A stretch of DNA of 32,183 nt from a virus (Duplodnaviria > Caudoviricetes): the IMG/VR virus record IMGVR_UViG_3300011335_000411, positions 1 through 32,183 of that record; one strand, given 5' to 3'. Within the stretch, counting starts at the first letter, position 1, and the number at the start of each line of letters is the position of its first letter. The notes under the pieces are model-generated. The model was not told where the DNA came from, did not search any database, and saw only the letters and a list, made by a program, of their open reading frames with translations. Made by a program: the position numbers and the translations under genes. Of this stretch, positions 22,997-31,278 are shown piece by piece.

Positions 22997-23026
22997 TTGA
23001 TAATTGAAACCTTTGTTTTATATTTG
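22997..23026 (+). promoter_or_regulatory. Bacteroidetes housekeeping (early) promoter
   Basis: TTG-N19-TATATTTG; shares TTTATATTTGCATATAA with the promoter at 28437. Confidence 0.8.
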
Positions 23027-24291: not shown

Positions 24292-24455
24292 AATACAAAC
24301 TAACATACAAAATAGGATTAGCAGTAGTACAAGAATGGATGTTCACATCTAAAAGTTTGTGCTATTGGAAGAAAATGGACTTAATAGAAACAGGACGTTT
24401 TAGTATGGGTTGTTTTGAAATCGAACAAATAGATGTTTTAAAATCGAACAAATGA
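24288..24455 (+). CDS. 55-aa hypothetical protein (MKYKLTYKIG...)
   Basis: ATGA overlaps at both ends. Confidence 0.65.
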   Translation: MKYKLTYKIGLAVVQEWMFTSKSLCYWKKMDLIETGRFSMGCFEIEQIDVLKSNK

Positions 24456-24865
24456 AAAATAACTTAATAGAGAAAGTCACTTACTTAATTGAGCGTGACC
24501 AATTAGACAAGCGAAACAGACGTAAAGAAATCATATACAAAAAATGTTACCTGATGAATCGTTTACGAGAAGAGCAGTTGACTTATCACGAAATCGGAGC
24601 TTACTTTAATCAGCATCACGCAAGTGTAATTCACAATGTACAAACTCACAAAGATTTAACTAAGTATAAAAATCAGGACTACAAAAACACGATCACTGAA
24701 TACAGAGTATTTTTAGTAGACACAAAGTACGTTGTTAATCCAAGAAACATTCTTGACGATGTAAAAGCGTGTACAAGTCTTTACAAGCTCCAAAGAGTAA
24801 AACGATGGATTGACGAAGGAAGATATAATTATTTACAAGAAAACAAAACAGAAATAGAAAATTAG
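24452..24865 (+). CDS. DNA-binding protein with DnaA C-terminal-like HTH
   Basis: LTYHEIGAYFNQHHASVIHNV resembles the DnaA domain IV HTH. Confidence 0.7.
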   Translation: MKNNLIEKVTYLIERDQLDKRNRRKEIIYKKCYLMNRLREEQLTYHEIGAYFNQHHASVIHNVQTHKDLTKYKNQDYKNTITEYRVFLVDTKYVVNPRNILDDVKACTSLYKLQRVKRWIDEGRYNYLQENKTEIEN

Positions 24866-24868
24866 CGT

Positions 24869-24876
24869 TATATTTG
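24869..24876 (+). promoter_or_regulatory. Bacteroidetes -7 promoter element for the replication operon
   Basis: TATATTTG; no clear -33 TTG. Confidence 0.55.
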
Positions 24877-24880
24877 TACG

Positions 24881-24982
24881 TGGGTAAGCAGACCCTATTT
24901 AAAGAACTTATTAGAACCTCATTTGGCGAGTAGTGCTGCTTCACGAAAACCGAATGGGGTTTTTTCATTTTAAAGCAGTAAA
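24881..24982 (+). ncRNA. Structured leader RNA / attenuator with complementary loops
   Basis: GGGT-AAGCAG-ACCC hairpin; 12-bp stem 24915-24926/24950-24961 plus U-run with apical loop CTGCTT; another AAGCAG at 24973-24978. Confidence 0.6.
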
Positions 24983-25576
24983 GTGGCAACAGAAAAAAAA
25001 TCATTTCTATTGTATTGTGATGTTATTCACACGGTAGAAAAAATGAAAGATGTAGATGCAGGAGCATTACTTAAACACATCTTACGTTACGTAAATGACC
25101 AAGACCCAGTAACGGACAATCCCATTGTAGAAATAGCATTTGAACCAATTAGACAAAGTCTTAAAAGAGATTTAGTTAAATACGAGAATATTCGAATGCG
25201 TAATAGTGAGAACGCAAAGAAGCGATGGGATGCGACCGCATCCGACCGCATACCAAATGTACCAAGTGATACCAAAAATGCCGATAGTGATAGTGTAAGT
25301 GATAGAGTTATATCTAAAGATATATATAATAAAACTACATTAGATAATCGCAAACAAAAGTTTGCCGATTCGTTAGTTCCTTTTTTAGAAAAGTATGGGA
25401 AGGATATGTTAAACAAGTTTTATATGTATTGGACTGAACACGGTGAGCGTGATAAAAAAATGCGATTTGAGAAAGAAAAAGCATTTAACTTAGTGCTTCG
25501 TTTAAGCAATTGGTTTGAACGAAATAACGAAAGAAAGAAAATAGAAGTTAAATTACCTCCTCAAATCATAGACTAA
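24983..25576 (+). CDS. Replication initiator / replisome organizer (DUF6291-like N-domain)
   Basis: KKSFLLY...DAGALLKHILRY N-terminus, low-complexity DSDSVSD linker, FYMYWTE..MRFEKEK C-terminus; precedes the helicase. Confidence 0.75.
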   Translation: MATEKKSFLLYCDVIHTVEKMKDVDAGALLKHILRYVNDQDPVTDNPIVEIAFEPIRQSLKRDLVKYENIRMRNSENAKKRWDATASDRIPNVPSDTKNADSDSVSDRVISKDIYNKTTLDNRKQKFADSLVPFLEKYGKDMLNKFYMYWTEHGERDKKMRFEKEKAFNLVLRLSNWFERNNERKKIEVKLPPQIID

Positions 25577-26580
25577 TGTACAACAGATTAACAAGCCTAA
25601 ACACAGAGATGTTTGATATCAGGCAAAAGAAAGATATTCGAGGTAAATCAATTGGATGGGATTGGGAAATGCTTCCATACACAATCAAAGAAGGATGTAC
25701 AACTTACATCGGTTCAGCTCCTGCCAGTGGAAAAACGGAGCTTTGGTTTGAGATACTTATTAACCTTTCGTGTTTACATAATTGGAATCACGTTATATTC
25801 TCACCTGAAACAGGAAGTAGTGCTGAAATATTTGCAGAGCTTTGCTACAAGTACATAGGTAAACCATACGTACAAGGACAGAACTCAATGAGTAATTCTG
25901 AACAGATAGTTGCAGAGATGTTTATTAACGAACATTTTATTGTAATTGACCCAATTGATGAGGATTTAACCATAACTAAGTTTTACGAGTTAGTAGATGA
26001 AATCGAACGCAAGGAAGGAATGAAAATTCACACTACAACGATTGATCCTTGGAACGAATTAACGGAAGAGTATTTACCAAGTGATTTAGGAAGAGAAGAT
26101 AAGTACCTAAGTAGAATTTTGGGAGCAGTACGAAAAAACGCAAGGAAAACAGGTAGACACAATTGCGTAATTAATCACGTTCGTGACCAACCTATGGTAA
26201 GCTCCAAGACAATAGCAGGAACTGACATCAGTTACTTTCCAATGCCAAGTGCAAGAGATTTCGCTGGAGGACAAGTATGGTTTAGGAAAGGACTTAGTGT
26301 ATTGATTCCTTGGCGTCCTCCGTACGGATTAATGGATAGTGATGGAATAGGAGCTGAGAAAAATGAAGTACATTTGAAAGTTGCTAAGAGTAAACCTAAA
26401 GGCGTATCAAAAAACGGAACGTACAAGTTATATTTGGACTTAGATAAATATCAATACTATATGCTTGATTACAAAGGTAACCGTGTTTACGCTAATCGGA
26501 CAAAGAAAGTACCTGAACAGAAAAAGATTACAATGGTTGAGCAAAAATTAAACGCATTAAACAACAAAGGATGGACATAG
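25576..26580 (+). CDS. DnaB-like (SF4) replicative helicase
   Basis: Walker A SAPASGKT, FSPE, Walker B IDPWN, VINH, KVAKSK. Confidence 0.85.
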   Translation: MYNRLTSLNTEMFDIRQKKDIRGKSIGWDWEMLPYTIKEGCTTYIGSAPASGKTELWFEILINLSCLHNWNHVIFSPETGSSAEIFAELCYKYIGKPYVQGQNSMSNSEQIVAEMFINEHFIVIDPIDEDLTITKFYELVDEIERKEGMKIHTTTIDPWNELTEEYLPSDLGREDKYLSRILGAVRKNARKTGRHNCVINHVRDQPMVSSKTIAGTDISYFPMPSARDFAGGQVWFRKGLSVLIPWRPPYGLMDSDGIGAEKNEVHLKVAKSKPKGVSKNGTYKLYLDLDKYQYYMLDYKGNRVYANRTKKVPEQKKITMVEQKLNALNNKGWT

Positions 26581-26867
26581 GACTAAAACTACTTTACATC
26601 AAAGGACTTATACAAAAGAACATTTGGAAAGTAAAGCTAACAAGAGAAGAGCTGCAGGAGAAAAGACCATCAGCAGTTGCATACATTAACGGAGCGAAAG
26701 ACACAGAGAACGATTTAAAGCAAGTTGAACAAGCAATACACGAACTCGAAACAGAACTACGATTACAGGGTAGAGAAATCATCAGATGTCTGCAGATAAA
26801 CGGAGAATTAAAAAAGAAAATTGAAGAATTGGAACACGAATTAAAATACAAAAACGTAGAATTATGA
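26571..26867 (+). CDS. Coiled-coil protein (98 aa)
   Basis: Heptad-rich sequence; its 3' end is duplicated at 27252-27286. Confidence 0.75.
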   Translation: MDIGLKLLYIKGLIQKNIWKVKLTREELQEKRPSAVAYINGAKDTENDLKQVEQAIHELETELRLQGREIIRCLQINGELKKKIEELEHELKYKNVEL

Positions 26868-27049
26868 CACCGAAAGAGAAAGCAGAAGAGTTAGTAGATA
26901 ATTTTGAAAATGCATTGACTATTAAAGATTGTGCATTAATTTCAGTTGATGAAATAATTAATTGTGATTATTTCTTTAAAACATTAGAAGATACAAAATT
27001 ATTTATAGATTATTGGTATAAAGTACAACAAGAAATAGAAAAGCTATGA
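26864..27049 (+). CDS. Cassette-family protein (EKA...CALISVDE...YW..V..EI)
   Basis: Paralog of 30141-30374 and 31033-31278. Confidence 0.8.
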   Translation: MTPKEKAEELVDNFENALTIKDCALISVDEIINCDYFFKTLEDTKLFIDYWYKVQQEIEKL

Positions 27050-28436: not shown

Positions 28437-28466
28437 TTGTTTATATTAAAATAGTGTTTATATTTG
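28437..28466 (+). promoter_or_regulatory. Bacteroidetes housekeeping (early) promoter of the recombination/cassette operon
   Basis: TTG-N19-TATATTTG. Confidence 0.8.
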
Positions 28467-30140: not shown

Positions 30141-30374
30141 ATGACAGCGGTAGAAAAAGCAAAAGATTTAGTTGAAAAATTTAACTATGAGTCAAAACAT
30201 TTTTTAATGTTAGACTCCAAACAATGTGCATTAATTGCAGTTGATGAGTGTATAAAATACGAACAAAAAATACGAACACAAATTCAATCGGTAAACTTCC
30301 CTAATTCATTTATAATTATTCTAAATGATGGAGTTTTTTGGGAGGAAGTAAAAAACGAAATTAGTAACCTTTAA
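30141..30374 (+). CDS. Cassette protein, CALIAVDE family
   Basis: Bounded by motifs. Confidence 0.85.
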   Translation: MTAVEKAKDLVEKFNYESKHFLMLDSKQCALIAVDECIKYEQKIRTQIQSVNFPNSFIIILNDGVFWEEVKNEISNL

Positions 30375-31032: not shown

Positions 31033-31278
31033 ATGACAGCAGTAGAAAAAGCAAAACAAATACACAGCACGCATTATTATGCAATAGCTGCAGATGGTTC
31101 GTACTCATTTGAAATAGCAAAAGAATGTGCATTGATTTCAGTTGATGAGATAATGAAAGCACCATTTGAAAACAGTTACTTGGAATTAGTTCCCGATTAC
31201 GCACCCGATTCTGATTGGTATTGGGATAAATTCAGAGAATATTGGGAGGAAGTAAAACACGAAATAAATAACCTTTAA
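31033..31278 (+). CDS. Cassette protein, CALISVDE family
   Basis: Bounded by motifs. Confidence 0.85.
   Translation: MTAVEKAKQIHSTHYYAIAADGSYSFEIAKECALISVDEIMKAPFENSYLELVPDYAPDSDWYWDKFREYWEEVKHEINNL

Follow-up and report, generated by a model that had tools for sequence, protein, structure and literature searches.

A conserved leader RNA with complementary hairpin loops ahead of replication genes in phages of the Bacteroidota: a putative RNA switch

Background

The C4 RNA is a cloverleaf accompanied by the icd/kil leader ORF, and the I-complex and pT181 plasmids rely on counter-transcripts made from the opposite strand, with control of pT181 exerted by attenuation. The P4 CI RNA arises from the leader and stops the replication genes by pairing at two sites, seqA upstream and seqC downstream (PMC4825925). 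In the guanidine-IV (mepA) riboswitch the loop of a 5' hairpin kisses the loop of the terminator hairpin, a precedent for kissing-loop antitermination, and the kiss is disfavoured when a lengthened terminator takes up part of the linker (PMC11611296). In the I-complex plasmids, where RNAI or Inc RNA kisses SLI and repZ has its pseudoknot, a single loop change can alter compatibility (PMC10724649).

The leader considered here belongs to a tailed phage known from 32,183 nt of IMG/VR record IMGVR_UViG_3300011335_000411 (positions 1 to 32,183, the whole stretch analysed, referred to below as the window). It resembles P4 CI/seqA/seqC and the c4 RNAs of P1/P7 (RF01695) in having a same-strand antisense segment within the leader, between upstream and downstream complementary sites, and P4 immunity in the control of replication genes by premature termination, which for the present leader is a prediction (PMC4825925). 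Unlike these, it consists of three simple hairpins with the antisense loop on the terminator itself, and the cloverleaf and the icd/kil leader ORF are absent. With guanidine-IV it shares a 5' hairpin loop that would kiss the loop of a terminator hairpin (PMC11611296; pairing here read from the sequence), but its loop letters vary freely (47 loop sequences, or 'keys', in 92 leaders, among the matches listed) with no ligand pocket pattern, phage replication genes take the place of the transporter gene, and there can be a third copy over the start codon. The likeness to the I-complex plasmids lies in loop-loop recognition ahead of a replication initiator (PMC10724649; here position and pairing), whereas a conserved opposite-strand promoter of the TANNTTTG type, as would suit a counter-transcript of the I-complex or pT181 kind, is missing here.

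The Rfam search suggested in an initial annotation of this DNA did not place the leader in the C4/CI families or with guanidine-IV: the window and 20 homolog loci gave no matches at gathering score, and the matches under it were noise only (mir-454 and caiA, E 0.7 and 9.5). On this comparison the element would appear to work like a hybrid of P4 CI and guanidine-IV while being a member of neither family. We found no description of it in the literature, most subscription papers being outside our reach; the parts of Weinberg 2010 (PMC2864571) and Weinberg 2017 (PMC5737381) that were covered hold no matching motif, and four readable supplements of Fremin 2023 (PMC10690425) gave no match, although the element could be among the 8,495 unnamed DNA-virus candidates of that study. 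What is new here is the third hairpin, which covaries with the key and lies over the start codon, together with a set of cultured carriers suited to tests.

The leader in the window

The leader and the adjoining genes are arranged as follows.

24452..24865, + strand: upstream ORF, 137 aa, with a DnaA-C-like HTH (PF08299, E 2e-6, under the curated cut-off)
24869..24876, + strand: -7 promoter element of the Bacteroidota type, TATATTTG (consensus TANNTTTG), with a predicted start site at about 24881
24882..24895, + strand: hairpin 1, 4 bp (GGGT 24882-85 / ACCC 24892-95), loop AAGCAG at 24886-24891, the first 'lock'
24896..24914, + strand: linker, AU-rich, 19 nt, length-constrained
24915..24965, + strand: terminator-like hairpin, with a 12-bp lower stem (24915-26/24950-61), a purine-rich internal loop (AGTA 24929-32 / GAA 24945-47), a 3-bp upper stem (GTG 24933-35 / CAC 24942-44) closing the apical loop CTGCTT at 24936-24941, the 'key', and a U-run of six T (24960-65)
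24965..24986, + strand: hairpin 3, 8 bp (24965-72/24979-86), loop AAGCAG at 24973-24978, the second 'lock', with the GTG start within its stem
24983..25576, + strand: DUF6291-domain protein, 197 aa, likely replication initiator (Pfam PF19808, E 1.4e-22)
25576..26580, + strand: primase/helicase-type helicase, 334 aa, overlapping the initiator stop (phrog_239, E 1.8e-12)

The loop CTGCTT of the terminator hairpin is complementary to both AAGCAG loops, and the whole three-hairpin element spans about 105 nt. The coordinates that the initial annotation had given were all confirmed on the sequence; it had put the element at the head of replication genes, which the DUF6291 initiator and the helicase bear out. 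It had also placed a second AAGCAG immediately before the initiator GTG; the copy is present, with a gap of 4 nt between it and the start at 24983 instead of abutting it. Overlooked at that stage was that this third site forms the loop of a hairpin that buries the GTG. Hairpin 3 (-3.8 kcal/mol) starts 3 nt beyond the terminator stem and is much shorter than the terminator hairpin. The initiator has in addition a weak PHROG primosomal protein match, and its homologs in cultured phages are annotated 'replication protein'. The 137-aa upstream ORF stops 3 nt 5' of the promoter, and transcripts from it would also run into the terminator.

The internal loop AGTA/GAA, which we take to resemble a bulged-G motif, is invariant at 3 of the 4 AGTA columns in alignment A2, which is partly a product of selection, and purine-rich internal loops are conserved in both of the leader classes defined below. 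The same -7 element stands 3-6 nt upstream of hairpin 1 in homologs, again partly by selection in the pattern searches; its consensus and its -12..-5 numbering follow PMC6847099.

Taken singly, the sequence of the window is weak evidence for such an element. The minimum free energy fold of the leader contains all of the hairpins, with a stability inside the range of shuffled sequences (z -1.0; 30 of 200 shuffles equally good), the + strand of the window has 24 copies of AAGCAG, and the TANNTTTG box is not enriched across it (41 observed, 45 expected); from the window alone, therefore, the element is not beyond chance. A simple terminator scan of the window, restricted to loops of 3-8 nt, does not list the leader hairpin, and no second copy of the element occurs elsewhere in the window. 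It is conservation across homologs, to judge by the comparisons that follow, that takes the element beyond chance, and we regard it as almost certainly a real, conserved RNA element.

Conservation of the loop pairing

In the leaders of related initiators the layout is kept, and the loops differ yet match each other. A search of IMG/VR that was blind to the loops, its pattern holding the promoter, the linker and the end of the terminator only, returned at least 121 loci. With a match defined as a Watson-Crick run of at least 6 nt between predicted loops extended by 2 nt of padding each, loops 1 and 2 are complementary over 6-9 nt in 92 of 110 unique leaders among the matches listed, and these 92 leaders hold the 47 distinct keys. 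Shuffling the loops of the 110 leaders gave a mean of 3.2 matches and a maximum of 10 (200 shuffles), and 7% of non-cognate pairings match. The covariation of the two loops that the initial annotation had proposed as a check is thus found, the match being kept with changing letters. Five of the 18 leaders without a match have a 5-nt key match and the same layout, and the remainder look unrelated. We estimate, for one strict pattern, a family of about 670 IMG/VR stretches.

Two classes of leader were aligned, class A with 37 hand-picked leaders (the window included), which is biased in that many came from a loop-containing pattern, and class B with 47. The kiss helix is paired in 37/37 (100%) of class A, with two-sided changes at 3 of 6 pairs, a result partly selected on loop sequence, and is 97% paired in class B, with two-sided changes at 6 of 8 pairs. 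All four pairs of the hairpin 1 stem show two-sided changes in the 37 class-A leaders, and the terminator hairpin covaries in both alignments. The first linker measures 14-20 nt in class A (16-20 nt in 36/37) and 11-14 nt in class B (13 nt in 36/47).

A scanner found the element upstream of the initiator in 54 of 80 initiator loci, as compared with 0/80 downstream and 4/80 on the other strand; the figure of 54 is a lower bound, as about ten more loci are recognisable by eye and two have too little flank. In 6 of the 80 loci the element lies 260-550 nt upstream with an intervening gene. It also precedes other types of gene, namely other initiator families, primases, HNH, ERF-like and small unknown genes, families that we presume from N-terminal sequences. 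Initiators about 90% identical to that of the window have different keys or a leader of the other class (L001/L003/L084), so that the leader acts like an exchangeable module. Model R2, run on 49 phage records out of a set of 73 intended loci, matches 29 of them, three twice, and in two of these three the additional match is a real element that differs in key. In 16 bacterial genomes, with 150 candidates per genome scored, model R1 gave three real elements and four plain terminators; each of the former is on a small contig, next to a DUF6291 gene or one gene away on its 5' side. A single 354-nt contig of a relative in the RNA run X1 starts at the promoter, passes the terminator and extends into the ORF; as a contig it carries no information on ends, strand or level, and it may be DNA.

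Several individual loci have arrangements of their own. In L135, L144, L149, L156 and L098 an extra gene, which we take from its N-terminus to be a likely HNH/NUMOD4 endonuclease, separates the leader from the initiator, about 545 nt downstream. L323 (G007:C71:29022-29148) is one of two elements 2 kb apart; it stands before an ORF of 391 aa that resembles P-loop ATPases, and the other, farther downstream, stands before the initiator. L175/L176 come from a 45-kb contig under the label Gammaproteobacteria, on which element and initiator are present in two inverted copies; the contig is likely a misbinned or misassembled Bacteroidota phage.

The third site

Of the 37 class-A leaders, 30 (7 keys) have a further complement of their own key no more than 45 nt downstream, against 78 of 1104 in the foreign-key control; in class B the count is 1 of 47. 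With the upstream site in 37/37, class A has the seqA-CI-seqC order of upstream site, internal antisense and downstream site that had been suggested by analogy with P4; the further expectation that all three 6-mers covary holds for class A and fails for class B. The three-site layout is a subtype and not a property of the whole family.

The class-A site lies 0-6 nt before the start codon and 6-19 nt from the terminator base. In 15 of 20 distinct contexts it is the loop of a hairpin closed by at least 5 bp, compared with 2.6 expected from flank shuffles, and the five contexts without a closed third hairpin are the group with a 7-nt key, in which the site abuts the ATG. Over the whole alignment the hairpin 3 helix is 78% paired, versus 42-52% in slid registers, and its pair-type counts there are no better than in shuffles. 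As hairpin 3 presents the third site in its loop, the subtype of the window has two identical locks for one key.

In L149 and L305 the third site stands before the start codon of the gene inserted between leader and initiator. One class-B lineage has the site right before the ATG and has relatives with the same key that lack it (L109/L107 versus L003, L200, L301 and L307), which suggests that the third site arose more than once.

Changes in the keys

On parsimony trees built without the key columns, the keys of class B underwent 6.9 changes per pair and the stems 7.6-8.3, and the corresponding values in class A are 1.7 and 4.3-5.5. Between nearest neighbours, where the pairs are not independent, two-sided changes in class B are twice as frequent in keys (37/256) as in stems (42/637), and one-sided changes number 3 in keys and 61 in stems; class A, with the same dependence among pairs, has no excess of two-sided key changes (4/162 versus 14/486 in stems). 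The nearest-neighbour changes prove strict pairing of the predicted helix and only hint at key switching, and the evidence for diversifying selection on the keys is mixed and does not establish it.

Cultured carriers

All six isolate loci that were retrieved through the initiator protein have a matching loop pair upstream of the initiator.

Flavobacterium phages 11b, tooticki6-1 and elemoA 7-9A: loop pair upstream of the initiator
Olleya phage Harreka_1: loop pair upstream of the initiator
Cellulophaga phages phi13:2 and phi19:3: loop pair upstream of the initiator, with a weak hairpin 1 and the match read by eye

Cellulophaga phage phi19:1 likewise carries the element, and a blastn search with two leaders against cultured phages gave nothing useful. 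Baltic phages isolated on LMO6/LMO9 have three keys at one position.

Key GTGAGACG: tooticki, together with 19 further non-RefSeq records that do not differ from it in the region
Key GTGAGAAG: morran9-1
Key GTGGAACG: snusmum9-1 and mumin6-1

The tooticki and snusmum leaders have 10 differences in 113 nt, 4 of which are the paired key change, and these near-identical leaders with three keys, in cultured phages of the same Flavobacterium hosts, offer a ready test set. The tooticki key mirrors a class-B key with loops 1 and 2 exchanged (L366:1632-1745 versus L142), so that the direction of pairing is not fixed. Mumin-type phages have a second element with the key GTCGTCG, in front of an endonuclease gene, some 1 kb 5' of the replication leader (L366:597-700, L370:338-440, L371:338-440); at that position morran9-1 has a different gene and, in the stretch checked, no promoter. 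The idea of one shared key per genome was rejected, as the keys differ in 5 of 5 two-copy records (the G007 contig, G049, G060, tooticki6-1 and phi13:2), a result also expected from independent acquisition, given dozens of keys.

A possible RNA feedback and its alternatives

That the element regulates the genes downstream of it is in our judgement likely. As for how, we propose an RNA-only negative-feedback switch on the replication genes, in which transcription, termination, the direction of control and action in trans are what we infer, and which we hold to have about an even chance of being right. Early on, the nascent loop 2 would kiss hairpin 1 ahead of the synthesis of the terminator's 3' strand, and this kiss would hinder closure of the terminator and hold loop 2 off hairpin 3, with the result that initiator and helicase would be made. 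Transcripts that terminate would yield an RNA of about 85 nt (about 24881-24965) in which the closed terminator frees loop 2. As this RNA accumulates it, or a same-key RNA from a co-infecting phage, would bind hairpin 1 of newly made transcripts, with loss of the cis kiss and more termination, and the same RNA would dock on hairpin 3 of read-through transcripts and lock the start codon. Expression of the replication genes would in the end be limited by copy number or in time, and cross-talk would depend on the key.

The fixed length of the first linker fits a cis kiss, which needs it. Free loop letters make a small ligand unlikely, so that the natural competitor would be an RNA with the same key, and we found a single conserved source of such RNA, the terminated transcript. 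Opposite-strand promoters of the TANNTTTG type within 150 nt downstream number 4/37 in class A and 3/47 in class B, versus 10 and 14 in control stretches. An 11-bp antiterminator joining the 3' side of hairpin 1 to the 3' strand of the terminator can be drawn in the window and was rejected, as it is not conserved and its cognate and non-cognate pairings are equally stable (both -6.2 kcal/mol). Neither that antiterminator nor an opposite-strand promoter is thus conserved, which leaves the kiss as the one alternative pairing that we found to be kept among leaders, and there is no sign of a separate antisense gene. Nor would the leader be read by one downstream protein, since the proteins encoded downstream of the leaders are unrelated. 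By a rough geometry (2.8 A per step; closed terminator hairpin, 19 steps), the loop of hairpin 3 would not reach loop 2 in cis once the stem has closed, which favours a target in trans, and pairing near the start codon reduces initiation in Flavobacterium (PMC6847099). Against the feedback stand the energies of a 6-bp kiss (about -7 kcal/mol) and of the stem (-14 kcal/mol), with no ligand to help, the lack of the third site in 46/47 class-B and 7/37 class-A leaders, and keys that change no faster overall than stems; moreover, P4 CI is a processed RNA, whereas processing of the present leader would be conjecture.

Some of these same points would suit a throttle that acts in cis only, in which the kiss fixes the fraction of read-through and, in the present subtype, loop 2 later leaves hairpin 1 for hairpin 3 of its own molecule to give a short burst of translation per mRNA, while the keys drift neutrally. 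It needs no diffusible RNA, and the fixed linker, the rate of key change and the absence of the third site from most of the family agree with it, but the third site is placed by the start codon (0-6 nt) and not by the terminator (6-19 nt), contact with it in cis would by our geometry require an open lower stem, and two-sided key swaps occur between near-identical leaders; we consider this account possible, if doubtful. The conserved purine-rich internal loops of both classes could point instead to a phage or host protein (an antiterminator, an RNA chaperone or the ribosome) that switches the terminator on recognising the internal loop or the shape of the kiss, leaving the letters free because shape alone is read. 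Genes up- and downstream differ between carriers, however, a search that was not systematic identified no shared candidate protein, and the covarying third copy would be left unexplained, which makes a protein-driven switch unlikely.

The superinfection immunity that the initial annotation had put forward is disfavoured in its prophage form, i.e., a lysogen whose short RNA silences incoming phages of the same key in the style of P4 and P1. The three-site logic shared with P4 and the many keys speak for it, as does the lack of an evident repressor, which that annotation had noted and which our screen upholds: in a set of 31 genomes of carriers or related phages (G000 included, 27 with a completeness of 90% or more), HTH_3 was over cut-off in 1/31, and no canonical CI-type repressor was evident. 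In the same genomes, however, a tyrosine integrase was found in 0/31, a resolvase in 0/31 and ParA over cut-off in 0/31, and the cultured carrier tooticki6-1 is described as lytic (PMC7077304), so that the lysogenic role of P4 and C4 would have no counterpart here and we consider prophage immunity very unlikely; the carrier phages may have an unrecognised carrier or plasmid state. Finally, the kiss might stabilise a terminated short RNA with a separate, structural or host-directed job, the replication genes being read by simple leak-through. An RNA that begins with a hairpin near its predicted start and finishes with a terminator would indeed be compact and stable, but the element precedes replication genes in no fewer than 54 of 80 initiator loci and is kept there despite an inserted gene, the third site lies over the start codon, and there is no fixed loop sequence for an outside target; this reading seems highly improbable.

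If the feedback switch is true, it shows how phages of a major aquatic phylum that lack repressor and integrase limit their replication genes, and it joins kissing-loop antitermination with internal antisense of the P4 type in the compass of one short leader. One might then speculate, as a tentative extension that we consider less likely than not, that lytic phages of the Bacteroidota possess a protein-free RNA counter with an address code, in which the aborted leader represses itself via the two identical locks, the swappable 6-9-nt keys set incompatibility groups and with them which co-infecting phages silence one another, and differing keys prevent cross-talk between the switches of one genome. 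The family is in any case large and missing from Rfam, and its naturally orthogonal keys would be useful regulatory parts for Bacteroidota.

Other features of the window

Two further TATATTTG boxes, at 23019-23026 and 28459-28466, are followed by CATAT/CATA and each heads an early-gene run without a hairpin leader. The early region also holds three small phrog_21441 paralogs (26864-27049, 30141-30374 and 31033-31278), to which no function is assigned. A 175-aa ORF at 1950-2477 has sigma-factor-like PHROG matches (phrog_1740, E 1e-9) and lies directly 5' of the packaging genes, where it is possibly a late-gene regulator.
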